Below, piece after piece: positions 4,601-63,950 of a DNA stretch of 64,000 nucleotides. This DNA is from Candidatus Parcubacteria bacterium (lineage in GTDB: Bacteria > Patescibacteriota > Minisyncoccia > JAHIHE01 > JAGLIN01), in the NCBI GenBank assembly GCA_023132875.1, contig JAGLXN010000007.1:1262-65261 (forward strand). The letters run 5' to 3'. The notes under the pieces are model-generated. The model worked only from the letters and a program-made list of their open reading frames with translations. It did no database searches and was not told the origin of the DNA. The position numbers and the translations under genes were made by a program. Within the stretch, counting starts at the first letter, position 1. Each line of letters opens with the position of its first letter.

Positions 4601-4720
4601 GTAATCATTTTAACATTTTAACATATAAACATTTTAACATTAGAACTTCCTCGCTTTAACACGTTAATAAAAGTTTATGGATGTTAGAATGTTAGTATGT
4701 TAGAATGTTAGTACGTATAT

Positions 4721-6334
4721 CTATTTATACTTAAATCTATCAACAACCGCGTAAGCTATATTATCAGAATGATCTCCAATTCTTTCTAAATTTGTCAAAA
4801 TCTCAGTAAAATATTTTCCTTTCTCTAAAGAACATATTCCTTTATTCATTCTCTCTAAATGATTGCTATGAGATTTTTTTACTATTTCATCTACTTTATT
4901 TTCATGCTTTATAATTTCATAAGCAAGCTTTAAATTATCTTCTTCTAAAGATTTTATAACAAGATTTTGCATAATTTTTAATTTACCGAATATCGCAGTG
5001 AGTTCTCGGATCGCTTTCTCGGAAAATTCCATTCTGTCTTCTTTTATATCAACGAACAATTCAGAAACGGTTAAAACATGATCAGAAAGATGCTCTAAAT
5101 CAGTTGTAATGTGCATCAAGCTATAAAGCTTCATTAGATCTTTTTTATTAAGATTTTGCTGTGAAATCTGTGCTAGATATTCTGAGATTTTTCCTGTCAT
5201 TTCGTCCATTTCTTTCTCGTATTCTTCAACTTTTTTAAGCAAATCAGTTTTATTTTCAAAAAATATTAATTTTGATACTTCTAACATTTCATTTACAGTT
5301 TTTGCCATATCCACAACAGCACGATTAGCTTGTCCAAGAGCAACAGAGGGAGTATAAAGTAATTTTCTACTCAAATAGGAAAGCTTGGACTCTTCAGTCT
5401 TAATCTCCGGAGTATGTTTGTTTATAAATTTTGCTATAAAAGGAATAAACGGAAGAAATATTAAAGCGGTTATAATATTATACAGCGTATGCCCATTTGC
5501 TATTTGCCTTCCCATGTCATCTGAGGTAATGCTTGCTAAATAATCAAAGTATTTGAAAAACAATAAGAAAAATATAATTCCGAATATATTAAATAACAAA
5601 TGCATAATAGCAATGCTGGTCAAAAAACCTTTTCGCTTGAGACCCATATAAATAACTTTCAAGCTTGAACCAAGATTTACGCCCAAGATCATAAAAAGAG
5701 CCGTGCTGAGATCCACAATTTGCGTTGCTCCAAGCGCGACAATAATAACGGAAGTCGCGCTGCTGCTTTGCAGTAATAATGTAAGAAAAGCTAAAATAAA
5801 TATATAAGCAATTTTGACAGAACTAAACTGATTGATAAAATCAATAGCTATTTGATTATGGGAAACAGATTGCATTCCGTTAAAAACAAAATACATTCCC
5901 AGGAATAAAAAACTGAATCCGATAATAGCTTCCCCAATATTCTTTTTTATTTTACGGACAGCAAAAATGTGAATGAAGACTCCGACCGTTAAAATCGGCA
6001 AAGCATAAATTCCTATCTGAAAAGAAGCAAGCTGAGTTGTTATTGTGCTTCCAATATTAGCGCCAAGCATAGCGGAAACAGCTCCGCTATAACCCAAAAG
6101 ACCAGCACTCATAAATCCGATAAGCATTGTAATTGTAGTGCTGCTGCTTTGAATTACGGCTGTTATTCCCGTACCAATCGCTAATCCCTTTATTGGATTA
6201 TCATTCGTTTTTCTAAGCGTTTCTTCCAGCTTAAACCCCATGATTTTTTGTAAACTAACACCCAAAAGATGAATCCCATAAAGAAGAATGGCAAGCCCTC
6301 CTACTATTTCAAATATTGTTGTTAGTTCAAGCAT
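4721..6334 (-). CDS. Na+/phosphate cotransporter family protein with C-terminal PhoU-like domain
   Basis: Multi-TM N-terminal half with the GxxxxSSSxT repeats typical of NptA/YjbB. C-terminal helical PhoU-like region. Confidence 0.8.
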   Translation of the reverse strand: MLELTTIFEIVGGLAILLYGIHLLGVSLQKIMGFKLEETLRKTNDNPIKGLAIGTGITAVIQSSSTTITMLIGFMSAGLLGYSGAVSAMLGANIGSTITTQLASFQIGIYALPILTVGVFIHIFAVRKIKKNIGEAIIGFSFLFLGMYFVFNGMQSVSHNQIAIDFINQFSSVKIAYIFILAFLTLLLQSSSATSVIIVALGATQIVDLSTALFMILGVNLGSSLKVIYMGLKRKGFLTSIAIMHLLFNIFGIIFFLLFFKYFDYLASITSDDMGRQIANGHTLYNIITALIFLPFIPFIAKFINKHTPEIKTEESKLSYLSRKLLYTPSVALGQANRAVVDMAKTVNEMLEVSKLIFFENKTDLLKKVEEYEKEMDEMTGKISEYLAQISQQNLNKKDLMKLYSLMHITTDLEHLSDHVLTVSELFVDIKEDRMEFSEKAIRELTAIFGKLKIMQNLVIKSLEEDNLKLAYEIIKHENKVDEIVKKSHSNHLERMNKGICSLEKGKYFTEILTNLERIGDHSDNIAYAVVDRFKYK

Positions 6335-6342
6335 GGAATTAA

Positions 6343-6450
6343 ATTGTTAGATTGTTGAATTGTTGAATTGTTGAATTGTTGAATTGTTGAATTGTTGAAT
6401 TGTTGAATTGTTGAATTGTTGAATTGTTGAATTGTTGAATTGTTGAATTG
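6343..6450. repeat. perfect 8-bp tandem repeat (TTGAATTG)x~13, i.e. (CAATTCAA)n on the minus strand
   Basis: Read directly. It abuts the nptA-like start codon (6334, minus strand) and forms its 5' leader. It creates the spurious ORF 6322..6864. Confidence 0.95.
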
Positions 6451-6899
6451 TGCTATGCATATGTAACAATAGAACAATTTAACAATAGAGCAATATAATT
6501 TTATTTTAATACTTCTGTGTTTTATGTAAAGTGTATAAGTAGTTTTGTCTTCAGTAGTGTTGAACAGATCCTGATATCCATCAAGATAAACTCCGTATAT
6601 TTTCTGCTTGTTTATATGTTTAAATGTTAATATGTTAAAATGATTTATGGGGTTGACAAATTTTCTCAGTGTGATATAGTGTTTCGTGAAGTTGAATTTT
6701 GATATTTGATTAAAATGAGACTTCAAAAATAAAGAATCTATGCAATGCACCATGAGCTGTATGCAACTGCACAAAATGCAGTAGATCAAGGAGTAGTGAG
6801 AAGAAGCATGAAATCGGAAATAGCAGAAGTCGGAAAAGAAAAATATGATACCTTTGTAAGCCACTCAGGCCCCGCATTCCAGCTACACCGAAGATAACT

Positions 6900-7840
6900 G
6901 GTACCCAAGATCCCGGCATTTGATTAGCAACAATTTGAAAAAGTTGTTGCAGAGAGGTGAAAATGATTTGAAAATCGCCCTTTGAAAAGGGTAAGGTCCG
7001 TTTCGGCTTTGTTTGCTAGGAACAAGGGACCTCAAAAAAGACAAGAAAAAATTCCCGCTCTGAAGCGGAAAGACCTGCTCGATCTCGAGGCGTACACATT
7101 CTGGTTATCCAGAACTGCCCGAGAAGTTTGCCGGTCATGAGGAGCGATGGACTGCGCCAAGTTGCATGTAATGAAAGTAAGAATGAATGGCGACTCCATG
7201 TACGCTCCAGAAGAAAGGTATTCCCGCTGTCCCCTCGGAATATGAGGGACGAAGAAAAGATTAGTAAAGAAGAAATTTGTAATAGTGGGACATACTAAGA
7301 TCGGTGGGAGCTTTGTTGGCTACTAGTTCGGGAAGATCGTTTTACCCGAAAATAGCGCCATGACGAGACCGCTGGTCAAAAATTTAAGATAAGATGATTG
7401 GAATTTTGAAACATTTTCTGTATCTCTTTCTCAACTAGAATAGATATTATTTGCTCTCTCGACCTAAAGGATTGGCGGAGAAAAAAGAATAAGTAAACTG
7501 TTCTAAAGTCAAGAGAGATTTTGGCGCCAAGAGGAAATTTACAAAAAATTCGACACCCCCATTTCAATCACATGTGTTGAACAAAAATTAACTGGGCACC
7601 TGCCGCCCGAATACCAACGAGGAGATCTGCATGATTTTTAAAAAAATAAAATTCTAACAAACCGCTCCCTTTCTTTTAGGGAGCTAACGGAGCAGCGAAA
7701 AAGTCTGTAGGTAGCATATCAAGCTTTAAATGACTATGTCAGCCTACTACTTATTCTTCAAACCGGCACCAAGGCCTGTTTTTTTTGTTGTTTAAATTAT
7801 TTAGAGGTGATGGGCACCTTGAGGATGCCCGTCACCAAAA
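6900..7840. ncRNA. GC-rich (~45-50%) ORF-free region, candidate structured RNA gene(s) of unknown class
   Basis: The 940 bp have no ORF longer than 70 codons in any frame. GC is markedly above the ~30% genomic background, and the region has many local stems (e.g. aggtcc...ggacct at ~6995-7040). I could not match tmRNA, RNase P, SRP or rRNA signatures by eye. Confidence 0.35.
7803..7838 (-). terminator. stem-loop immediately downstream of tgt
   Basis: ggtgatgggcacc..ggatgcccgtcacc gives an 11-bp stem with one G:U, 4 bp past the tgt stop. No clean U-tract, so terminator function is uncertain. Confidence 0.3.
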
Positions 7841-7841
7841 A

Positions 7842-8996
7842 CTACACCGACTTTCTAATCCTCTTCATCATCTCTAAATAAAAATAAATATTATGAATGC
7901 TTGCTAATCGCAGAGCGAGAAGTTCGCCGGAAACAAATAAATGCCTTAAATACGCGCGGGAATAATTTTGACAAGTGAAGCATCCACAATTTTTGTCAAT
8001 TGGTTTTTTGTCATTTTTAAATTTCTCATTTGTGATATGAATGATTTCATAGAATCGCGACGATGTCGGAGTTCCCTTCGGGAGATTCCGACAAGGCGAG
8101 AAATTTTCACTTTTAGACTTAAACTTATATATCGTTCCATGCCGCGCGTTTCTTGTTGGAATAACGCAATCAAACATATCAATCCCCCTTGAGACAGCGT
8201 CGACAATTTCTTCTGGTTTTCCTACTCCCATCAGATATCTGGGCTTATCTTCCGGTAAAAACGGAATTGTCCAATCAACAACTTGAAACATTTTTTTACT
8301 TGACTCCCCTACTGAAACTCCTCCAATCGCGTATCCATTAAAGCCGATTTTAACCAACTGTTTTGCCGATTCTTCTCTGAAATTTTTATAAATTCCGCCC
8401 TGAACTATCCCAAATAATAATGACTTATTTTTGCCAAGTGCCTTATTTTTTTTGTCAAAATATATCTTGCATCTCTCCGCCCATCTTGTTGTTAGTTCTA
8501 AGGACTCTTTAATATATTTTTTACTCGCTGGATACGGCGCGCATTCATCAAGAACCATTATAATATCGCTTCCTAAATTCTGCTGAATCTCAATTGATTT
8601 TTCGGGAGTTAGTAAATGAGAAGAGCCGTCAATATGAGATTTGAATTCCGCTCCTTCTTCGGAAATTTTCCTCATTTTTGCCAGTGAAAAAACCTGATAG
8701 CCCCCGCTATCTGTTAGAATTGGACCGCTCCAATTCATAAATCTATGAAGCCCGCCAAGTTTTTTAATTAGCTTATCAGACGGCCTCAAATATAGATGAT
8801 AAGTATTGCCAAGAATAATCCGCGCGCCGATTTTTTTCATCTCAATGCTATCCAATGATTTCACGCTTCCGCAAGTCGCAATCGGCATAAAACACGGGGT
8901 CTTGATGATCCCGTGTTTTGTTTTTATTTCTCCTAGCCGAACGCTGGATCTTTTTGATTTTTTTATTATTTTGAAAGACATATAATCTAAATCCAA
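7842..8996 (-). CDS. tgt: queuine tRNA-ribosyltransferase
   Basis: Full-length Tgt similarity with the C-terminal Zn site CGCFTCQNYSRAYLRHL. Confidence 0.9.
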   Translation of the reverse strand: MDLDYMSFKIIKKSKRSSVRLGEIKTKHGIIKTPCFMPIATCGSVKSLDSIEMKKIGARIILGNTYHLYLRPSDKLIKKLGGLHRFMNWSGPILTDSGGYQVFSLAKMRKISEEGAEFKSHIDGSSHLLTPEKSIEIQQNLGSDIIMVLDECAPYPASKKYIKESLELTTRWAERCKIYFDKKNKALGKNKSLLFGIVQGGIYKNFREESAKQLVKIGFNGYAIGGVSVGESSKKMFQVVDWTIPFLPEDKPRYLMGVGKPEEIVDAVSRGIDMFDCVIPTRNARHGTIYKFKSKSENFSPCRNLPKGTPTSSRFYEIIHITNEKFKNDKKPIDKNCGCFTCQNYSRAYLRHLFVSGELLALRLASIHNIYFYLEMMKRIRKSV

Positions 8997-11760: not shown

Positions 11761-11896
11761 CATTACTAAATTATAATATTATAAATATTTTATTATGTCA
11801 AACTTAAAAAATTTCAAACTATTGACATTTATTGAAAAATCGTTTAGAATTGGTCTGTTGTAGAAGACTTTAATCTTAATTTTAAACAGACAAAGA

Positions 11897-12649
11897 ATGC
11901 ATGTTTCAATCACTCCGGAAATTATAACAAACATACTTGGAATTCCAATTTCAAATACTCTTATAGCCTCTCTGATAGCTACTGTAATTTTAGTGATAAT
12001 CGCGTATTTTGCTACAAGAGACATGAAAGAGGTCCCGACCGGCATACAAAATCTATTTGAAACAATTATAGAAGCGCTTTTAAATATGGTTGATAGCGTT
12101 ACTGGAGACAAAAAACAGACTTATCAATTTTTTCCGTTAGTCGCGACAATTTTTATTTTTATAATCCTATCTAACTGGCTGGGTCTTGTTCCGGGATTCG
12201 GATCGTTAGGATTTTATGAAACCGCGAAAGAGGGCATGCATGGAAATGGGCATGCTGTTTTTGTTCCCCTGCTTAGATCCGCAAACAGCGATCTGAATAC
12301 AACGCTCGCGCTGGCTATTGTTTCAGTTCTGGCAACTCAGATCTTTGGAATTATAGCTCTGGGAATTTTTAAATACGGCAAGAAATTTATAAATTTCAGT
12401 TCGCCTATAACTTTTTTTGTAGGCATACTGGAACTTATAAGCGAAGTGGCAAAAATGGTTTCATTTTCATTCAGGCTTTTTGGAAATGTTTTTGCTGGAG
12501 AAGTCCTTTTGGTCGTAATAATGACGCTCGCGCCATTTATAGCGCCTCTGCCATTTTTCGGACTTGAACTTTTTGTAGGATTTATCCAAGCTCTTGTGTT
12601 TGCAATGCTAACCCTCGTTTTTCTAAAAATGGCAGTTACAGCGCATTGA
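11897..12649 (+). CDS. atpB: F0F1 ATP synthase subunit a
   Basis: Polytopic membrane protein with the conserved subunit-a C-terminus (R in the LSFRLFGN motif). First gene of the atp cluster. Confidence 0.85.
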   Translation: MHVSITPEIITNILGIPISNTLIASLIATVILVIIAYFATRDMKEVPTGIQNLFETIIEALLNMVDSVTGDKKQTYQFFPLVATIFIFIILSNWLGLVPGFGSLGFYETAKEGMHGNGHAVFVPLLRSANSDLNTTLALAIVSVLATQIFGIIALGIFKYGKKFINFSSPITFFVGILELISEVAKMVSFSFRLFGNVFAGEVLLVVIMTLAPFIAPLPFFGLELFVGFIQALVFAMLTLVFLKMAVTAH

Positions 12650-12776
12650 TCATATTAACATACTAACATTCTAACATATTAACATAATGAAACATCAAAA
12701 ATCATTCAATGTGGAACTACTGGTGTAAAAATCTTGTTAGAATGTTAAAATGTTAGTATGTTAGTATGATTTATAA

Positions 12777-13031
<255 letters not shown>

Positions 13032-13190
13032 TAATCATTCAGTCAAAAGAGAATTAATTCTCTTTTGAAGTGTGTTTATTAAATTATTAGCATTAGAGCT
13101 CACATGTTTGTTCGCTATTATTTCCGCGTATACGGAAATAACAAAGATTACTTTTGACTTTGTAACTTTATAAACTTTTAACTTACTTCT

Positions 13191-13685
13191 ATGTCAGAAA
13201 TATTTTCAAAATTAGGATTAGATTATAAACTAATCATCGCTCAAGCAGTTAATTTTGTCTTGCTTCTTATAATCTTACAACGGCTCGCCTATAAGCCGGT
13301 TTTGAAAATGCTCAATGACAGAACTGAAAAAATTGATAAAAGCCTTAAACAAGCAAAAAAGATTGAAGAAAAGTTGAAAAATACTGAAGAAATTAAATTA
13401 GCTGAAATTAAAAAAGCAAAAGAAGAACATCAGAAAATTATAAAAGAAGCGCAAGAAATCGCGGAAAGAAAATCACAAGAAACAATTGAAAAAACCAGAG
13501 TAAAAACGCAGGAAATCGTAGAAAATGCAAAAATAGAAATAACAGCCGGAAAAGAAAAGTCAGTCAAAGAAGCAAGAAAAGAAATCGCAGATATTTCTAT
13601 TCAAATCGCTAAAAAAATCATTGGAGATAATCTAAATGAAAAAGAGCAGAAAGAAATAGCGAATGATATTTTGAGAAAGATATAA
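13191..13685 (+). CDS. atpF: F0F1 ATP synthase subunit b
   Basis: N-terminal TM helix plus a long charged coiled coil, sitting between atpE and atpH. Confidence 0.8.
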   Translation: MSEIFSKLGLDYKLIIAQAVNFVLLLIILQRLAYKPVLKMLNDRTEKIDKSLKQAKKIEEKLKNTEEIKLAEIKKAKEEHQKIIKEAQEIAERKSQETIEKTRVKTQEIVENAKIEITAGKEKSVKEARKEIADISIQIAKKIIGDNLNEKEQKEIANDILRKI

Positions 13686-13785
13686 TTGAATTGTTACATT
13701 GTCAAATTGTCAAATTGTCATCGCATCTATAAATCTTTTATTGCCTAACAATTTAGCAATATAACAATTTAACAATGTAGTTTAT

Positions 13786-14172
13786 ATGAAAATAACCCCA
13801 AAACAATACGCTATAAGCCTGTATGAAACAACAAAAAATGTTGATGGGTTTGAGATTGAAAAAAGAATAAAAAACTTTGTTGATATTTTGAAAAAAAATA
13901 ACGATTTGTCGCTAGTAGACAAAATAGTAGATGAATATAATAAACATCACAGAAATCAAAGAAATATTTCCAGAATTGAAATCACCAGTAGTAATAAATT
14001 AAATCCAGAAATTTTAAATAAGATCATTCAGAAATTCAAAAAACAAATTGAAATTGAAGAAAAGATTGATAAGTCTTTAATAGGAGGAATGGTTATAAAA
14101 ATAGATAATAGCCTCTTAATTGATGGAAGTGTTAAAAGGAAATTGGAAGATTTGAAGAAGAATTTGATGTAA
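13786..14172 (+). CDS. atpH: F0F1 ATP synthase subunit delta (OSCP), short form
   Basis: 128 aa in the operon position between b and alpha. Weak OSCP-like features only. Confidence 0.6.
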   Translation: MKITPKQYAISLYETTKNVDGFEIEKRIKNFVDILKKNNDLSLVDKIVDEYNKHHRNQRNISRIEITSSNKLNPEILNKIIQKFKKQIEIEEKIDKSLIGGMVIKIDNSLLIDGSVKRKLEDLKKNLM

Positions 14173-14291
14173 AGTTTTGATTAGTGAATTTTTGAATGCT
14201 ATTACATTGTTGCATTGTTAAATTGCTAAATTGTTATGCGTGGCATAGCAATACAGCAATTTAACAATTTAACAATTTAACAATTTAAATT

Positions 14292-15791
14292 ATGAACAGC
14301 CACATTATAGAAACTTTAAAACAACAAATAGCGCAGACTAAATTAGAGACTCAAGTTGAAAAAATCGGTAAAGTAGTAAAAATTGCCGACGGAGTCGCGG
14401 CTTTAAACGGCCTGACTGATGTTATGAGCGGCGAGCTGCTTGAATTTCCAAATGAAATTTTTGGCGTTGCTTTAAATCTGGAAGAAGACAGCATAGGAGC
14501 CATGATTCTTGGCAATTACCTCAAAATCAAAGAAGGAGATACTGTAAAAAGCACGGGGAGAATCCTTGAAGTTCCTGTTGGACAGCAAATGGTTGGAAGA
14601 GTTGTTAATGCTTTAGGCCAGGCAATAGACGGGAAAGAAGAAATTGAAACTGATCAATTCTATCCTGTAGAAAAAATTGCCCCGGGAGTCATCACAAGAA
14701 AATCAGTTGACGCCCCGCTTCAAACAGGGATTAAGGCGATTGACTCAATGATTCCAATCGGAAGAGGACAAAGAGAATTAATAATTGGAGACAGGCAAAC
14801 AGGAAAAACTGCCATTGCTATTGATGCAATTATCAACCAGAAAGGAAAAGATGTTATATGCATATATGTAGCTATCGGACAAAAAGAATCTAAAGTCGCG
14901 AAAATTGTTGCCAAGCTTGAGGAAAGCGGAGCAATGGAACATACAATTGTGGTTCTTGCCGGAGCCTCCGATCCAGCTTCTATGTCATACATAGCTCCTT
15001 ACACTGGATGCACGATAGGCGAGTATTTTATGGATCAAGGAAAAGACGCAATGATCGTATATGACGATTTAAGCAAGCATGCATGGGCATATAGGCAAAT
15101 TTCTCTTATTTTAAAAAGGCCGCCGGGAAGAGAAGCTTATCCTGGAGATATTTTCTATCTGCATTCCAGGCTTCTTGAAAGAGCGGCAAAACGCGATGAG
15201 AAATATGGCGGAGGGTCATTAACCGCACTGCCTATTATTGAAACTCAGGCCGGAGATGTTAGCGCCTACATTCCAACTAATGTTATTTCAATCACAGACG
15301 GGCAAATCTTTCTTGAAACAGACTTATTTTATCAAGGAATAAGGCCTGCTGTTAATCCAGGTATTTCAGTTTCGCGCGTTGGATCTTCGGCTCAAACAAA
15401 AGCAATGAAGAAAGTTGCGGGAAAACTGCGGCTTGAACTTGCGCAATTCAGAGAATTAGCCGCCTTTGCTCAGTTTTCAAGCGATCTTGACAAAGAAACA
15501 AAACAAAGGATTGAGCGAGGAAAAAGACTTACCGAAGTCTTGAAACAAGATCAATATGTTCCCATGGAAACAGAAGAACAGGTTGTTATTATTTTCGCTA
15601 CAATTAACGGATTTTTGGATAATGTTGAAATTGAAAAAGTAAAGAATTTCGAAAAAGAACTTCTTGAACGCTTGAGAGAGAAAAATAAAGATATTCTTGA
15701 TAAAATTGCCGAAGAAAAAGATATTTCGGAAGAAACGGATAAAAAATTAAAGGAAATTATTGAAGAGTTTAAGAAAAGATTCTCAGCATGA
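14292..15791 (+). CDS. atpA: F0F1 ATP synthase subunit alpha
   Basis: P-loop [15 protein letters not shown] and overall alpha-subunit similarity. Confidence 0.95.
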
Positions 15792-16037
15792 TAATACTGT
15801 CTTTATAAAAAATGAATTAAATCATTCTATTGCTTTATTGTTGTATTGTTAAATTGTCAACTCTAATCAATTTTAATCTTAGCTAAAATAAAAAACTTCT
15901 CACGGAAGAACGGAATAGTCATGTTTTAAAAGAACTGCAAAAACTACCCAAAAAAAAATCAACTAGCTCATAAAGTTTACCAACGATAAATTGACAATGT
16001 AACAATAGAGCAATAGAGCAATTTAACAATAGAATTT

Positions 16038-16955
16038 ATGCAGTCAACACAACAAATTAGAAGACAAATCCAGTCAACAAAAAACACCTCGCAAATAACA
16101 AAAGCGATGGAAATGGTTGCTGCTTCAAAAATGAAAAAAAGTCAGGAGGCGGCTTTATTAGCTAGGCCTTACGCGGAAGCTGCTTTAAGTTTATTGGAAA
16201 ATGTCAGCGAATCAGTTGAACCGCGAAAACATATTTTATTGGAAAATAGAGAAAAGAAAAATGTCTGTCTTTTTGTTGTTACTTCCGATAAAGGATTGTG
16301 CGGCGGGTTGAATAGCGGTGTTATTAAAAAGGCTTTGCAAATAATCAGAAAAAATGAAAGCGAGGGCAGAAAAATTAGTATTGTCGCTATTGGAAAAAAG
16401 GCGGAAAACTATTTTAAGAGAACAAAAAACGATGTTATCGCAGTTTTTAACGGCATCGGTGATTCAGTGGAATTGCGTGAAACGCTTCCTATTTCAAAAT
16501 TACTGATTAACGATTTTAGAGATAAAAAATTTGATAAAGTAATTGCAGTTTACACAAACTTTATTTCTACTTTAAAACAAGATTCTAGAGCTAAAACTAT
16601 TTTACCAGTTACCAGAAGAAGTTTGGAAGAAACAATAGAAGAAATAGATGATTTAGCCATTAAAAATGGTGAAAACGGTAACGAAAATAATGGCATGGAA
16701 TATAAATTTGAACCATCACCTAGTGAAGTTTTATGCAAACTGCTTCCTAATCTGATTGAAATACAGTCTTATCACATTATTCTTGAATCAAACGCTTCAG
16801 AACATAGCGCCAGAATGGTTGCGATGAAAAGCGCGACTGACAGCGCATTGGAAATGCTTGATGATTTGAATTTATTATATAATTATACAAGACAGCAAAA
16901 AATTACTCAAGAAATAAGTGAAATTTCAGCAGGAGTGGCGGCGCAGGAGAATTAG
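16038..16955 (+). CDS. atpG: F0F1 ATP synthase subunit gamma
   Basis: 305 aa with the conserved gamma N-terminus (IRRQIQSTKNTSQITKAMEMVAASKMKK) and C-terminal helix. Confidence 0.9.
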   Translation: MQSTQQIRRQIQSTKNTSQITKAMEMVAASKMKKSQEAALLARPYAEAALSLLENVSESVEPRKHILLENREKKNVCLFVVTSDKGLCGGLNSGVIKKALQIIRKNESEGRKISIVAIGKKAENYFKRTKNDVIAVFNGIGDSVELRETLPISKLLINDFRDKKFDKVIAVYTNFISTLKQDSRAKTILPVTRRSLEETIEEIDDLAIKNGENGNENNGMEYKFEPSPSEVLCKLLPNLIEIQSYHIILESNASEHSARMVAMKSATDSALEMLDDLNLLYNYTRQQKITQEISEISAGVAAQEN

Positions 16956-17111
16956 TTAAAAGTTTATAAAGTTATAAAGTTCATAAAGTTGGTGAATTAA
17001 TAACTTTTTACTTTATAAACTTTATAACTTTAGATTAAATACGCACATTGAAAATTTAGAGATTGAGTTTTGGAAAAATACAAAAAATGATTCAAAAAAA
17101 TGGAGGATTGA

Positions 17112-17360
17112 TTGAAAATGGAACATGACATAATAATACTAATAATATTACCGATAACACTAACGCCACTAGATAATATTAGTATTAAAAAAATAGAAAT
17201 AACAGAAAAAGAAATAGAGTCTTTGAAATTCAAATACGGCCCCTATTCTTTTTACATTAACTTAGGAACATACATCGTTTATGGAATTAAATCAGGAGAA
17301 ATAAAAGAAATGGGTAAACTTATCGTTTCGGAAGACGGCAATTTAGAAATAGAAGAATAA
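17112..17360 (+). CDS. hypothetical small protein inserted between atpG and atpD
   Basis: 82-aa ORF with a hydrophobic N-terminus and no recognisable family. Coding status is uncertain. Confidence 0.3.
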   Translation: MKMEHDIIILIILPITLTPLDNISIKKIEITEKEIESLKFKYGPYSFYINLGTYIVYGIKSGEIKEMGKLIVSEDGNLEIEE

Positions 17361-17411
17361 AGTATTCTATTTCTTATTTTTCCAAACCCCAATTTTTGAA
17401 AAATATAAATT

Positions 17412-17479
17412 CTGGAGTTCAGGTTTTAACCTGTAAATGTCATCCTGAGCTTGTCGAAGGCTTACACTCTTAAAGAGTG
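17412..17479. repeat. hairpin element in the atpG-atpD spacer carrying a MITE-terminus-like motif
   Basis: Perfect 10-bp inverted repeat ctggagttca/tgaactccag encloses aaatgtcatcctgagcttgtcgaagg and an inner cactctt/aagagtg hairpin. Confidence 0.7.
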
Positions 17480-17515
17480 AACTCCAGAAATATTGTTAAA
17501 ATGTTTAAATGTTAA

Positions 17516-18907
<1,392 letters not shown>

Positions 18908-18943
18908 GATTATATTGCTGTATTGCTGTATTGTTACCAGCTG

Positions 18944-19037
18944 GCTCCATTGTGGCGGAGCCCTGTGGAGCCTTATGCAAATCGGGGAAAAGTTTGCTAA
19001 AGTCACAAAAGGCTCCAGTCAGGAGACTGGAGCCAAC
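18944..19037. repeat. cluster of GC-rich GGCTCC-stem hairpins
   Basis: ggctccattgtggcggagcc and ggctccagtcaggagactggagccaac. The latter is near-identical to the copy at 23056..23082. Confidence 0.8.
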
Positions 19038-19199
19038 GAATAAACCAACAGATAAAACAAAAAACAGCTCTTTCAAAAACTGTTTTTCTGAACTTTGAAA
19101 TTTAATTTCCTTTTTTTCATTCCATAATATTATCATTCTGAATTTATTTCAGAATTCTCTACTTACTACAATAAACGAACCTAACTAATAAAAAATAAG

Positions 19200-19493
19200 T
19201 CAGCTATTGCTGACTCGTTGAAAGATGAACATGGTATTTATAGGCTCATAGATTATTTCTAAATCCTTTCCTTTTTTATTTTCAGAAGTAAAATAATTTT
19301 CTTTTACTTTTAAAAAGTGCATTGTAGAAAGTTTATAACCAGCCGTCCCAAAGTGTCTTATAACATGCTCTATATCTGCAAATATTTCTTCTTTTGTTTC
19401 AAAACCATCATCAACTATCGCAGATAGATGTATTCCACCTTTTTCTTTTTTTAAACTTGCATGCACAGAAATAGTTTGTATTTCTTCTTTCAA
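19200..19493 (-). CDS. hypothetical 97-aa protein, antisense within the atp gene cluster
   Basis: Intact ORF on the opposite strand between atpD and atpC. No family recognised. Confidence 0.4.
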   Translation of the reverse strand: MKEEIQTISVHASLKKEKGGIHLSAIVDDGFETKEEIFADIEHVIRHFGTAGYKLSTMHFLKVKENYFTSENKKGKDLEIIYEPINTMFIFQRVSNS

Positions 19494-19547
19494 AATTTTT
19501 CCTCCTCAATATCTTTATTTAATAATAATACTATATTAATTAAACTT

Positions 19548-19970
19548 ATGTCAACATCTAAAATAAACCTCCAAATCATAACCCCAGAAAAAATCGCCTA
19601 TAAAGATAAAGCAGATCAGATCACTTTGCCAACGGAAGACGGCGAAATAACCGTGATGGCAAATCATATTCCGCTGATTAGCACGATGAAGCACGGAGAA
19701 TTGATTATCAAAAACGACGGAAAAGAAATTCCGATGGCTGTTTGCAATGGCTTTATTGAAGTCAGAGGAAATTGTATTATTATCATGACCGATATTGCCG
19801 AACGAGTGGAAGAAATTGATGAACAAAAAGCGGAAGAAGCAAAGAAAAAAGCAAAAGATTTGTTAAAAGAAAAAGACAGGATGTCTGATGTCGCGTTTGC
19901 GGACGCGACAGCGTTGTTAGAAAAGTCTTTGGCGAGGATTAGAGTGGCGAGGAAAAGGGAGAGAAGGTAA
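19548..19970 (+). CDS. atpC: F0F1 ATP synthase subunit epsilon
   Basis: MSTSKINLQIITPEK..ITVMANHIPLI..NGFIEV is a typical epsilon beta-sandwich plus C-terminal helix. Start moved to the ATG at 19548. Confidence 0.85.
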   Translation: MSTSKINLQIITPEKIAYKDKADQITLPTEDGEITVMANHIPLISTMKHGELIIKNDGKEIPMAVCNGFIEVRGNCIIIMTDIAERVEEIDEQKAEEAKKKAKDLLKEKDRMSDVAFADATALLEKSLARIRVARKRERR

Positions 19971-20252: not shown

Positions 20253-21204
20253 CCAATCCCTCAAAATTTCCACCAATAAACTTAAATTACAAAACATTCC
20301 TTCCGCCGACCTTGATGCGGAAGTTTTGTTATTGGAAGCGTTAAATAGAAGTAGATATAAAAAATTAGACAAAAGCTGGTTGTATATAAATGATAATTAC
20401 GAATTAAACAAAAACGAAGAAAAATTATTTAATAGTTTTATAAATCAAAGATTAAAAAACAAGCCAGTTGCTTATATAATAAATAGAAAAGAATTTTATG
20501 GCTACGATTTTTATGTTGACGAAAATGTTCTGATCCCCCGCCCTGAAACAGAATTCATTGTTGAAGAAGTTTTGAAAATTTTAAACCCCCTTAGCCCCCC
20601 CATTCGGCTATCGCTCGGAGCAGGCTCTTATCAGAGGGAAAATAGCGATTTCACTCTAATTGACATTGGAACTGGTTCGGGTTGCATAATAATAAGCGTT
20701 TTAAATGAGCTTGCAAAAAGAAAAGGAGATGATGTTGTAGAAAACGCTTACGCAAATGATATTTCTTTAAAAGCAATCAAAATCGCAAAACGCAACGCAA
20801 ATAAATATAACTTGAACAAAAAAATAAAATTTGTCGCAAATGATTTTGAAAAATTTTTAAATAAAAAAAATATTTATAACTCCGACGAACTTGTCATTAC
20901 AGCTAATCTTCCATATATAAAAAATGATGATTACAAAAATCTTTCTAAAAATATAAAAAAGTACGAACCCAAGATTGCGCTTGCAGCGGGAAAAGACGGA
21001 CTCGTCTATATAGAAAAATTAGTTGATTCTGTATTAAAAATCAAGAAAAAATACAAGCAAAAAATATATGTTCTTATTGAAGCAGATCCAAATCAAATGA
21101 GTAAAATAACTGCTATAATAAACAAAAAATCAGCTAACGCGCGTATTAAAATAATTAAAGATTTGAGCGGAAAAAAAAGAATTGCCGTATTGTCATATTG
21201 CTAA
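20242..21204 (+). CDS. prmC: release factor glutamine N5-methyltransferase PrmC/HemK
   Basis: LIPRPETE, the SAM motif IDIGTGSGC, and the NPPY-equivalent NLPY. Start placed at the MNIHQSL ATG (20242); the ORF-track N-terminal extension reads through the leader repeats. Carries a GC-rich ~23-aa insertion at ~20585-20655. Confidence 0.8.
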   Translation: MNIHQSLKISTNKLKLQNIPSADLDAEVLLLEALNRSRYKKLDKSWLYINDNYELNKNEEKLFNSFINQRLKNKPVAYIINRKEFYGYDFYVDENVLIPRPETEFIVEEVLKILNPLSPPIRLSLGAGSYQRENSDFTLIDIGTGSGCIIISVLNELAKRKGDDVVENAYANDISLKAIKIAKRNANKYNLNKKIKFVANDFEKFLNKKNIYNSDELVITANLPYIKNDDYKNLSKNIKKYEPKIALAAGKDGLVYIEKLVDSVLKIKKKYKQKIYVLIEADPNQMSKITAIINKKSANARIKIIKDLSGKKRIAVLSYC

Positions 21205-21267
21205 ATTGTTATATTATTATTGCGTTATGCATAACAATTTGACAATAGAGCAATTCAACAATTTAAA

Positions 21268-21306
21268 TAAATCTAAAACACGGCTTCAACCGTGTTTTAG
21301 ATTTGC
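21268..21306. terminator. bidirectional intrinsic terminator hairpin
   Basis: Perfect stem atctaaaacacgg/ccgtgttttagat with loop cttcaa, A/T-rich on both sides. Lies between convergent prmC and the histone-like gene. Confidence 0.6.
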
Positions 21307-21312
21307 AAAATA

Positions 21313-21522
21313 TTACTTTCTCTTTCTAGCTGGTTTTCTTTTAGCAACTTTTCTTTTGGCTGGTTTTCTTTTAGCAACTTTTCTTTTGGCTGGTTTTCTT
21401 TTAGCAGTTTTTTTGACGACTCTTTTCTTAGCTGGTTTTTTTGCAACTTTTCTTTTAACAACTTTCCTTTTTGCGGGTTTTTTAGCAACTTTTCTTTTGG
21501 CTGGTTTTCTTTTTGTAACCAC
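21313..21522 (-). CDS. lysine/alanine-rich histone H1-like basic repeat protein
   Basis: GTG start 7 nt after a strong SD (AGAGGAGGTGGAG). Tandem PAKRKVAKK repeats are encoded by 27-bp DNA repeats. The overlapping plus-strand ORF 21182..21553 is the repeat shadow. Confidence 0.65.
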   Translation of the reverse strand: MVTKRKPAKRKVAKKPAKRKVVKRKVAKKPAKKRVVKKTAKRKPAKRKVAKRKPAKRKVAKRKPARKRK

Positions 21523-21779
21523 GAAACTCCACCTCCTCTCTATATTAAGTTAGCACAAATTAAATTCCAATAATAAAAATAATGCGTTATATTTTTATCA
21601 AATGTGTTAAAAGTTCATTCAAAGATTTAATTTTTATTTTATACCTTAAAAAAATTTTAAACCTTTTCTACTTTAATTATATATTAAAAAAAATAATTTA
21701 CAATACCTTGTCAATAGTTAGGTGTCCTACATCTAGAATTTTTTTTCCTAATTTTTTTGTGGAAATTTTAAAAACTTGT

Positions 21780-25448: not shown

Positions 25449-25474
25449 TTTATAAATTATAAAATTTAAACTTC

Positions 25475-25560
25475 GTTTATTTAGTGTAAACATTAGTTTT
25501 TTTGGTGTTTTCTGTAGAAGACACTAATAAAACTAATATTTACACTAAGAAAACTAAAAC
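25475..25560. repeat. nested inverted-repeat element (tagtgta..attagtt / aactaatatt..cacta family)
   Basis: ttagtgtaaacattagttttt..gacactaataaaactaatatttacactaa. Related copies at 22..155, 37471..37560 and 63811..63950. Confidence 0.8.
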
Positions 25561-32672: not shown

Positions 32673-32895
32673 TAAAAATAAGTTAAAAGTTCAAAGTTAT
32701 AAAGTTATACGAAAGTGAAATGCCTAATTTGAATTCTTATTGTTTTACAAATGTTTTTTTATTGTCAAATTGTCGAATTGCCAAAAACAAGTAAAACGCG
32801 TGACAATTTGACAGTTTGACACTGTGTTGATTCTTATTTATATTATCAATGAAATTAAGACTCAGGATACTTCACTTTTATACCAACCTTAGCCC

Positions 32896-37470: not shown

Positions 37471-37560
37471 TTAGTTTACTTAGTGTAATTATTAGTTGTT
37501 CTAGTGTTTTATCTATAAAACACTAAAGAAACTAACGCTCACACTAAAAAAACTAAAACG
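37471..37560. repeat. nested inverted-repeat element, subfamily B
   Basis: ttagtttacttagtgtaattattagtt...cactaaagaaactaacgctcacactaaaaaaactaaaacg. Its tail matches the 25475..25560 copy. Confidence 0.75.
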
Positions 37561-49597: not shown

Positions 49598-49894
49598 AAA
49601 TTTAATATTTTAAAAAATAGACATCACTAATTATTTATTATAAAATAAAATCAGAATTTATATATTTTAATTTATTTATACTGTTATAGAAGTATCCTAG
49701 ATTTTAATTTCATTAATAATAAAAATAAAAATCAATATATTGTCAAACTGTTAAATTGTTAAATTGTCACGCATTTTACTTGTCTTTGACAATTTGGCAA
49801 TTTAACAATAAAAAAACATTTATAAAACAATAAAAATTTAAATTAGGTACTTCGGTTTTATGCAAACCTTAATCAACAATCCATAAATATAATA

Positions 49895-57744: not shown

Positions 57745-57820
57745 ATGTCCTGGGTAAGATTTGAACTCACGACTCCATGCTTTTCACACAGACTCTATGC
57801 CAAACTAAGACACTAGGGCT
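57745..57820 (-). other. tRNA-like fragment (T-arm plus 3' acceptor half), possible tRNA pseudogene or integration-site remnant
   Basis: Minus strand reads gtgag-TTCAAAT-cttac followed by ccaggac, i.e. a T-stem-loop plus a 7-nt 3' acceptor strand. The matching 5' acceptor strand (gccctag) pairs at only 5/7, and the anticodon loop is non-canonical. Confidence 0.3.
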
Positions 57821-63810: not shown

Positions 63811-63950
63811 TGGATTACGAAATTCTATTTTTAGTTATCTTCGCGTGAATATTAGTTCAATTAGCGTTTATTATAGGAAACATTAATAAAACTAATATTC
63901 ACGCTAAACAAACAAATTATAAGAGTTTTGTAATTTAAAAATATTAACAA
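63811..63950. repeat. nested inverted-repeat element, subfamily A (right window end)
   Basis: ggattacgaaattctatttttagttatcttcgcgt(a/g)aatattagtt... is shared with the first 150 bp of the window. Confidence 0.8.

Follow-up and report, generated by a model that had tools for sequence, protein, structure and literature searches.

The perfect octamer array preceding the gene nptA is best read as the 3′ arm of a 5′-leader stem-loop after recent slipped-strand expansion, which would be near-neutral or graded at most in its consequences for nptA and would not act as an ON/OFF switch; we give this reading a probability of about one half. All coordinates refer to the window, the whole 64-kb stretch of DNA that was analysed, and the array, the leader and nptA itself are all read on the minus strand. 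We infer the slippage origin from perfect units lying amid degenerate ones, from a partner arm that stayed unexpanded, from a nearest relative having no module while others have 2–4 units, and from the fact that nothing else is expanded in approximately 290 kb.

Anatomy of the nptA leader

The gene nptA encodes an NptA/YjbB-like Na/Pi cotransporter with Pfam matches to Na_Pi_cotrans (7.5e-47) and PhoU (6.3e-26). The corresponding NCBI record is named ‘Na/Pi cotransporter family protein [Candidatus Parcubacteria bacterium]’, and the alignment starts at residue 1 in most orthologs. The gene and the elements surrounding it are as follows:

4606–4713, minus strand: inverted pair of TAACAT / ATGTTA octamer arrays filling the nptA–cvpA spacer, of the same class as the nptA module
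4721–6334, minus strand: nptA, Na/Pi cotransporter with two PhoU domains, 537 aa, MCK4591881.1 (Pfam and NCBI)
6335–6354, minus strand: two degenerate ATG-proximal units CAATCTAA CAATTTAA and the spacer TAATTCC (sequence)
6351–6451, minus strand: perfectly periodic array core, 101 bases, 12.6 copies (periodicity scan)
6452–6464, minus strand: predicted loop of the leader stem-loop, 13 nt, ACATATGCATAGC (folding)
6465–6498, minus strand: predicted 5′ arm of the leader stem-loop, four units TATTGCTC TATTGTTA AATTGTTC TATTGTTA (complementarity and folding)
6503–6530, minus strand: putative sigma-70-type nptA promoter, −35 TTTACA at 6530–6525, 16-nt spacer, −10 TAAAAT at 6508–6503 (scan and ortholog conservation)
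6653–6680, plus strand: conserved divergent promoter TTGACA-16-TATAGT with TGTG upstream, the far-side boundary of the nptA control region (conservation)

The nptA promoter belongs to an extended motif, ...CTTTACATAA...AAGTAyTArAAT (or its TTGACA/TTGTCA −35 variant), present in 16 of 21 orthologous nptA upstream regions. As this promoter is situated upstream of both arms, the array appears to lie inside the 5′ leader, between promoter and start codon, in agreement with the initial annotation. Orthologs differ widely in how far the −10 box stands from the ATG (7 to 225 nt, with a mode of 24–29 nt), and in the window the two are 168 nt apart; a conserved promoter combined with such a variable distance suggests that the hairpin and array were inserted into the leader. 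Placing promoters relative to hairpins by scanning the genome for sigma-70 patterns is too noisy at 33% GC (83 matches, mostly in coding sequence), and we rely only on the promoter of atpB and on that of nptA, which is phylogenetically conserved. A 180-aa ORF on the minus strand (6322–6864), carrying QFNNSTIQ repeats across the array, was considered and rejected, because the conserved promoter falls within it and relatives lack the part with the repeats.

Applying a 7-nt rule to the −10 position, we infer, rather than map, a transcription start at approximately 6496. The first paired base of the window stem-loop lies 2 nt past this predicted start, and the onset of the hairpin falls 1–3 nt after it in the window and in the orthologous leaders of L001, L010, L013 and L020 (relatives are listed in the next section). 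The leader hairpin of L001 has a predicted energy of −35 kcal/mol (z = −7.4), while the stem of L013, rich in GC, is unrelated in sequence (−40 kcal/mol, z = −9).

TRF places a period-8 array at 6342–6451, with 13.8 copies and 97% matches. Its unit is AATTGTTG on the plus strand, equal to CAATTCAA/CAACAATT on the minus strand, and (CAAUUCAA)n is its RNA form. The two-unit pattern CAATTCAACAATTCAA has 11 overlapping matches at 6355–6450, corresponding to 12 perfect CAATTCAA units, against 0.01 matches expected in dinucleotide shuffles. These two counts bear out the perfect 8-bp repeat of about 13 copies described in the initial annotation, which was also right in placing the array close to the ATG; the gap between the TRF array end (6342) and the ATG, however, is 7 nt (TAATTCC) rather than 8. 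The sense strand of the array core contains no G. The motif AACAATTTAA beside the ATG is shared with the orthologs of L002, L005, L013 and L010 (67–81% aa identity).

The partner arm described there, with about three degenerate units at 6466–6495, is real as well, and we delimit it to 6465–6498. This 5′ arm of approximately four degenerate units is 80–81% complementary to any 30–36 nt stretch or register of the array. The leader stem is predicted to consist of the 5′ arm and approximately four loop-proximal array units, with an MFE of −15.6 kcal/mol (z = −4.3).

Copy number among relatives and predicted folding

Orthologs of nptA were found in 16 MAGs of Patescibacteria (Paceibacterota/Parcubacteria), at 66–90% identity, and in 10 JGI metagenome contigs; a cluster mate with 93% identity (L031/L032) comes from two further ENA assemblies. 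The leaders compare as follows:

Window, 100% aa identity: 5′ arm 4 units; 3′ arm 13.8 units
L001, 90% aa identity: 5′ arm 3 units; 3′ arm 4 units and 2 extra
L020, 76% aa identity: 5′ arm 3 units; 3′ arm 3–4 units
L002, 81% aa identity: no 5′ arm; 3′ arm 4 units
L005, 76% aa identity: no 5′ arm; 3′ arm 2 units
L010 and L013, 69% and 67% aa identity: other hairpins and one AACAATTTA unit
L031/L032, 93% aa identity: neither arm; near-identical promoter kept, its −10 box and the ATG only 27 nt apart

Length differences among relatives, which the initial annotation proposed to look for, are thus found at the species level (76–93% aa identity), with unit counts of 0, 2, 4, 3–4 and 4+2 against 13.8 in the window. 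Scans of genomes and metagenome contigs for near-identical strains that would permit a closer copy comparison returned none above 90% identity; exact-protein matches are same-sample contigs only, gapped or broken within the array. Since L031/L032 retain both promoter and gene without the element, the leader element (hairpin and array) appears to be dispensable. On an NJ protein tree, the clade {L002,{L001,{window,L031}},{L005,L020}} would have gained the module at its base, with a loss in L031 and expansion in the window lineage only.

Near-perfect period-7/8 arrays elsewhere in the window and in approximately 226 kb of related loci all have 2–5.5 copies, so within this range the nptA array is, as first annotated, the most expanded of its class. 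The presence of 12 perfect units bordered by degenerate ones indicates that the expansion is probably a recent event.

The effect of copy number on the start region was modelled by swapping the 12 perfect units for 0–20 units and computing the opening energy of positions −15..+12. The predicted energy is 7.7 kcal/mol at 0 units, 2.5–3.7 kcal/mol at 1–3 units and 1.4–2.5 kcal/mol at 4–20 units. Units beyond approximately the fourth stay unpaired and G-free in the predicted fold, and accessibility of the start site is predicted to be insensitive to copy number above approximately four units.

These observations can be arranged into the following tentative scheme. Transcription of nptA would proceed from the conserved sigma-70-like promoter (6530–6503), giving an RNA whose 5′ end lies about 2 nt before a hairpin with a 5′ arm of four octamer units (6465–6498). 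The 3′ arm, presumably of 3–4 units originally, would have grown by slippage to approximately 13.8. About four of these units would pair, and the other 9–10 would separate the hairpin from the AUG by approximately 75 nt of unstructured RNA that is rich in CAA and free of G. The leader would become longer, with the 5′-terminal hairpin intact and the start codon open. Within a class of modules that may turn over rapidly via slippage and deletion, such an expansion would most likely be near-neutral or, at most, modify nptA expression in a graded way.

The array was initially suggested to tune or phase-vary expression of the phosphate transporter. It is a long perfect tandem repeat, as phase-variable SSRs are, and the earlier remark that repeats of this type are liable to slip agrees with its perfection and length. 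However, it is located between the −10 box (6503) and the ATG (6334), outside both the nptA ORF and the −35/−10 interval; changes in unit number would accordingly toggle neither reading frame nor promoter spacing, which makes an ON/OFF phase switch at nptA unlikely. The flat predicted accessibility beyond approximately four units and the 93% relative lacking the element speak against phase variation as well.

Quantitative tuning of nptA by copy number is nevertheless possible. In a mode resembling UspA2, octamer slippage in the 5′ UTR would set mRNA stability or translation and generate heritable, reversible phosphate-transporter variants. The perfection and length of the repeat, its position between the predicted transcription start and the ATG, and the varying unit count among relatives are all compatible with this idea, and the AGAT repeats in the uspA2 5′ UTR, as summarised in PMC4679880, provide a precedent. 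We consider it rather unlikely, however, given that predicted start accessibility does not change between 4 and 20 units, that the 93% relative does without the element, and that no second expanded array occurs in approximately 290 kb, which resembles a one-off event more than a maintained contingency locus.

The class of inverted tandem arrays and alternative readings

Taken alone, the nptA array is a modest curiosity; its chief importance is that it is the most visible symptom of a class of modules. Inverted repeats with arms of 24 nt or more number 23 in the window, compared to 1–3 in ten dinucleotide shuffles, and 15–17 of them have arms with an internal period of 7 or 8. The class comprises approximately 17 intergenic inverted pairs, each with 3–5 tandem 7–8-mers, abutting start codons. 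Nine period-8 arrays were counted in the window, and none with a period of 6, 9 or 10. A typical module constitutes the spacer between co-directional genes: its 5′ arm lies 0–30 nt past the stop codon, and its 3′ arm ends 0–8 nt ahead of the next ATG, a distance seen in at least nine genes. Modules occupy essentially every spacer of the atpBEFHAGDC operon and also precede ftsZ, ftsA, dgk, ybeY, HIT, hisS, a signal peptidase gene and smc, i.e., housekeeping genes of many kinds.

At least five unit families can be distinguished: ATTGTT/AACAAT, TAACAT/ATGTTA, GAATTTA and AAAGTTAT, also AACAATTT, TGTTAAAA, AACTTTAT, ATTCTAA and others. Arms within one unit family are 83–96% alike across loci, and array-less orthologous leaders contain short unit-like seeds. 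The nptA–cvpA inverted pair retains 3 units per arm in the 93% aa relative, and every unit shows an identical C·A mismatch, both in the window and in this relative, suggesting that each arm of the module may be homogenised independently. A MITE/REP-like mobile hairpin was rejected as an identity for the class, the loops being unrelated between copies and target-site duplications not being seen. A search of the window and of positions 6300–7900 against Rfam 15, at gathering and permissive thresholds, returned only sub-threshold miRNA-hairpin look-alikes (27 bits against a gathering threshold of 70).

Module density is 2.3 per 10 kb in the window versus 0–1.7 in relatives. Approximately one third of the intergenic spacers of the window hold modules, with turnover between close relatives. 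The higher density points to the class being a lineage-specific proliferation. If the modules are functional, they may offer a clue to translation start and transcript organisation in minimal uncultured bacteria that do without the usual signals; if they are functionless, they may record an unusual mutational regime, with runaway slippage in quasi-palindromes of a reduced genome.

The polarity of the modules is fixed: all ten of the ATTGTT type read 5′-(ATTGTT)n...(AACAAT)n-ATG, and all five of the TAACAT type read 5′-(TAACAT)n...(ATGTTA)n-ATG. Together with the adjacency to start codons, this argues that any function of the class may be strand-specific and that the arrays may be more than mere junk, in which case the extra nptA units might matter; conservation of AACAATTTAA beside the ATG points in the same direction. 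Had the stems been selected as sense-strand RNA, G·U would be expected to exceed A·C among their mismatches; no such excess is seen (31 vs 35), hence RNA-level selection on pairing is not visible.

Only 2 of 47 genes are preceded by SD-like motifs, and in such an SD-poor genome the arrays could be sites at which ribosomes or an RNA-binding protein land. In its broadest form, which we put forward as a speculation unlikely to hold as a whole, this would be an SD-independent expression grammar of a Paceibacterota lineage: start-adjacent 7–8-nt units would either receive ribosomes or proteins, as landing pads, or act as tandem −10 boxes for leaderless mRNAs, inverted partners would gate or insulate them, and slippage would tune expression gene by gene, with nptA being an extreme allele that has outgrown its gate.

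A narrower version holds that the A/C/U-rich units are initiation enhancers or binding sites for S1-/Csp-like proteins, gated by the partner arm, so that the expansion frees approximately nine units and raises nptA translation. In its favour are the arrays placed 0–8 nt from start codons in at least nine genes with fixed sense polarity, the 45 of 47 genes without an SD motif, and the 3′-arm-only arrays persisting in L002 and L005 after loss of the partner. The start region is also predicted to be sequestered at 0 perfect units (7.7 kcal/mol) and to open as units are added, and a similar role has been proposed for TAACTGA repeats (PMC4679880). At the same time, the existence of at least five unit families across loci makes a single specific binder unlikely, close relatives differ in whether a particular gene has an array, and the missing G·U bias leaves no visible trace of RNA-level selection on pairing. 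On balance, a landing-pad role for the nptA units strikes us as quite unlikely.

The units might instead act at the DNA level as tandem −10-like elements (TGTTAAAAT = TGnTAAAAT; TAACAAT) producing leaderless or very short-leader mRNAs, in which case nptA would possess 13 weak promoters below its main one. The TGTTAAAA family lends this idea weak support: one unit and the next T form a perfect extended −10 (TGnTAAAAT), and the last unit lies 5–7 nt before the ATG in cvpA, ftsA, atpD and at an orphan ATG at 6651, with the same placement in the cvpA orthologs of L002 and L008. In relatives without the array, the cvpA position is taken by an extended −10 promoter, TGnTAAAAT. Strong −10-like hexamers occur 6–8 nt from the start codons of 7 genes against a background of approximately 1.2 per offset, a modest excess that is weak for a genome of 33% GC. 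The nptA unit, however, yields just AACAAT, with 4/6 matches and no TG motif, and a strong conserved promoter is already present upstream of nptA; in the atp operon, one consensus promoter precedes atpB and none was scored in the internal spacers. A DNA-level role is for these reasons very unlikely at nptA.

An intrinsic terminator or an RNase III processing hairpin for the upstream transcript would suit the long AU-rich duplexes of approximately 30 bp, a type cut by RNase III, and the co-directional spacers that members of the class occupy, including every spacer of atpBEFHAGDC; this reading is highly improbable, given that both nptA arms lie downstream of nptA's own promoter, that no U-tract follows the stems while the window does have canonical GC-rich terminators with T-runs at other places, and that the G·U bias is missing. 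An intrinsic terminator at nptA was rejected: the AU-rich stem is followed by more units and TAATTCCATG, and the terminator scan made no call there.

The long perfect array certainly exists, and its exact unit count rests on one assembly. In ENA ERZ23498665, from the same sample, the 831-kb scaffold_1 has both flanks identical to the window and a 100-N gap within the array, the left contig at this gap ending after 7.75 units. Scaffold_1722 of the same sample begins inside the array with 7 perfect units, and a Logan contig of SRR13892600 begins 32 nt ahead of the nptA ATG, again inside the array. These breaks, and the fact that window and gapped scaffold differ solely by 32 additional repeat bases in the window, could hint at an assembly or gap-closing artefact, but the 7.75 and 7 perfect units borne by independent contig ends on either side demonstrate that a long perfect array is real, and 101 nt can be reached by 150-nt reads; an artefactual copy number or expansion is barely credible. 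Contig breaks at the array reflect only a length above the assembler k-mer and are uninformative on heterogeneity. In practical terms, arrays of this type break short-read assemblies, as happened at nptA.

Comparison with known systems

Contingency loci are phase-variable simple sequence repeats of host-adapted bacteria. Like them, the nptA array is a long perfect SSR beside a gene, mutable by slipped-strand mispairing; unlike them, it lies outside the ORF and the −35/−10 interval, and an ON/OFF logic is not evident.

Stem-loops at the 5′ terminus stabilise mRNA in the E. coli ompA leader and in the B. subtilis aprE and ermC leaders. The nptA hairpin may resemble them, its stem beginning 1–3 nt from the predicted (not mapped) 5′ end in the window and four orthologs, but the window stem is weak (about −16 kcal/mol, predicted).

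Structure-mediated translational coupling is known in the E. coli atpHA mRNA, and intergenic hairpins processed by RNase III occur in the Neisseria Correia elements and in phage T7 early mRNA. At the class level the likeness is clear, as hairpins bridge a stop codon to the next start, in the atp operon among others; the nptA module, however, follows a promoter rather than an upstream cistron. Unrelated loops between copies and the lack of visible target-site duplications further argue that the window class is not a Correia-like MITE.

Another parallel is uspA2 of Moraxella catarrhalis, in which 5′ UTR AGAT repeats, present in 6–23 copies, alter expression (Attia and Hansen 2006, as summarised in PMC4679880). 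In both cases a perfect repeat is placed between promoter and start codon; its count varies, for nptA among species-level relatives. According to that summary, expression versus copy number was measured for uspA2; for nptA the counterpart is a folding proxy, which shows no change between 4 and 20 units. The nptA array also differs from the uspA2 repeat in its 8-nt unit, in the product of its gene, which is a phosphate transporter and not a surface antigen, and in being an arm of an inverted pair.

The closest published parallel found, as far as we searched, is provided by the TAACTGA heptamer direct repeats that precede start codons in marine Beggiatoaceae, some Cyanobacteria and Bacteroidetes, and for which a role in landing ribosomes or an RNA-binding protein was proposed (MacGregor 2015, PMC4679880). 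Both classes consist of short tandem units, usually in 2–6 copies with rare long arrays, and both are placed a few nucleotides upstream of start codons, in forward orientation, at many unrelated genes. In contrast, the window class has a period of 8 (sometimes 7) and several unit families, TAACTGA itself not being the unit; most of its arrays have an inverted partner upstream and are hairpin-capable, and its host belongs to Patescibacteria. The literature searched held nothing relevant on such repeats in Patescibacteria/Parcubacteria. SSRs between promoter and start codon and start-codon-proximal tandem repeats are already known; the novelty, within the literature searched, lies in units of 8 nt, in the occurrence of several unit families, in the inverted partners and in a host from Patescibacteria.

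Sequences flanking nptA

The Na/Pi cotransporter gene nptA lies on the minus strand, and three neighboring regions are relevant here:

6653–6897, plus strand: divergent promoter and short open reading frame (ORF)
7634–7803, minus strand: conserved segment of about 170 nt, directly downstream of tgt
4601–4720: hairpin of the nptA–cvpA spacer, compared with the spacers of the related loci L023, L008 and L003–L015

The first region is also found upstream of the nptA orthologs in L001, L010, L013 and L031. It contains a conserved promoter facing away from nptA (TTGACA-16-TATAGT, with TGTG on its upstream side), whose transcript starts with GTGAAGTTGA. An ORF with a Shine–Dalgarno (SD) sequence (AAGGAG), a type rare here, follows about 100–160 nt beyond the transcript start; it is short, encoding 28–32 aa (MKSEIAEVGKEKYDTFVSHSGPAFQLHRR in the window, MRKGNVKIFSAKTIIPDQQLCGHPPFEIVSRY in L031 and MNEKIGIFAKTIIPKAPGTQRLDHQFIGNL in L013).

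The segment downstream of tgt has counterparts of 80–83% identity in L003 and L002, and L010 and L001 match it in part. At its end the segment has a hairpin (GCTCCCTAAAAGAAAGGGAGC), after which comes a T-run. The tgt–nptA spacer, 1.5 kb in length, yielded neither a convincing ORF nor a hit in Rfam, and may encode a small RNA not yet described.

In the nptA–cvpA hairpin, the loop holds a −10-like GAAGTTCTAAT immediately 5′ of the 3′ arm, seen again in L008 and L023, and the spacers of array-less relatives carry a T-rich stretch followed by an extended −10 promoter, TGTGATAAAAT. Because of these two motifs, we propose that a promoter may be positioned between the two arms of this module.

Repeated and isolated elements

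44–129, 25472–25557, 37471–37556 and 63826–63921: four copies of a palindromic element of about 90 nt (78% mean identity)
32673–32895 (minus strand) and 49690–49894 (plus strand): leader-like element of about 200 nt; also in a relative, at L025 2827–2917
19975–20237: heptamer arms GAATTAT / TAAATTC around a GC-richer spacer
21315–21513: repeat TTTTCTTTTAGCAAC with a 15/30-nt period, about 7–12 copies, 64–75% matches
57746–57819, minus strand: Rfam tRNA call at 33.1 bits, against a gathering score of 29

The palindromic element has the consensus TTAGTTATCTTCGCGTAAATATTAGTTTTATTAGTGT...ACACTAATAAAACTAATATTCACACTAA, with TTAGT repeated at 10–11 nt intervals, and a minus-strand gene lies directly downstream of every copy (4/4); it looks like an operator or a further hairpin family. 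The leader-like element, with a central ATTGTCAA/TTGACAAT hairpin and conserved flanks, precedes smc and a gene encoding 434 aa. Good folding is predicted for the 190-nt spacer between the heptamer arms; this element had no Rfam match at E ≤ 1 except one miRNA look-alike. ORF 21182..21553 contains or adjoins the 15/30-nt period repeat. Unlike Rfam, ARAGORN called no tRNA at 57746–57819.

The atp operon

11897–19970: atpBEFHAGDC operon
17118–17360, plus strand: 80-aa ORF in the atpG–atpD spacer, with a strong SD (GGAGGA)

A single consensus promoter, TTGACA-17-TAGAAT, ending at 11850, precedes atpB, and nearly all internal spacers of the operon are filled by a tandem-unit hairpin or array. The atpG–atpD spacer, 578 nt long, is interrupted by the inserted 80-aa ORF; the adjoining motif GTCATCCTGAGCTTGTCGAAGG is found in L003 and L009 too.
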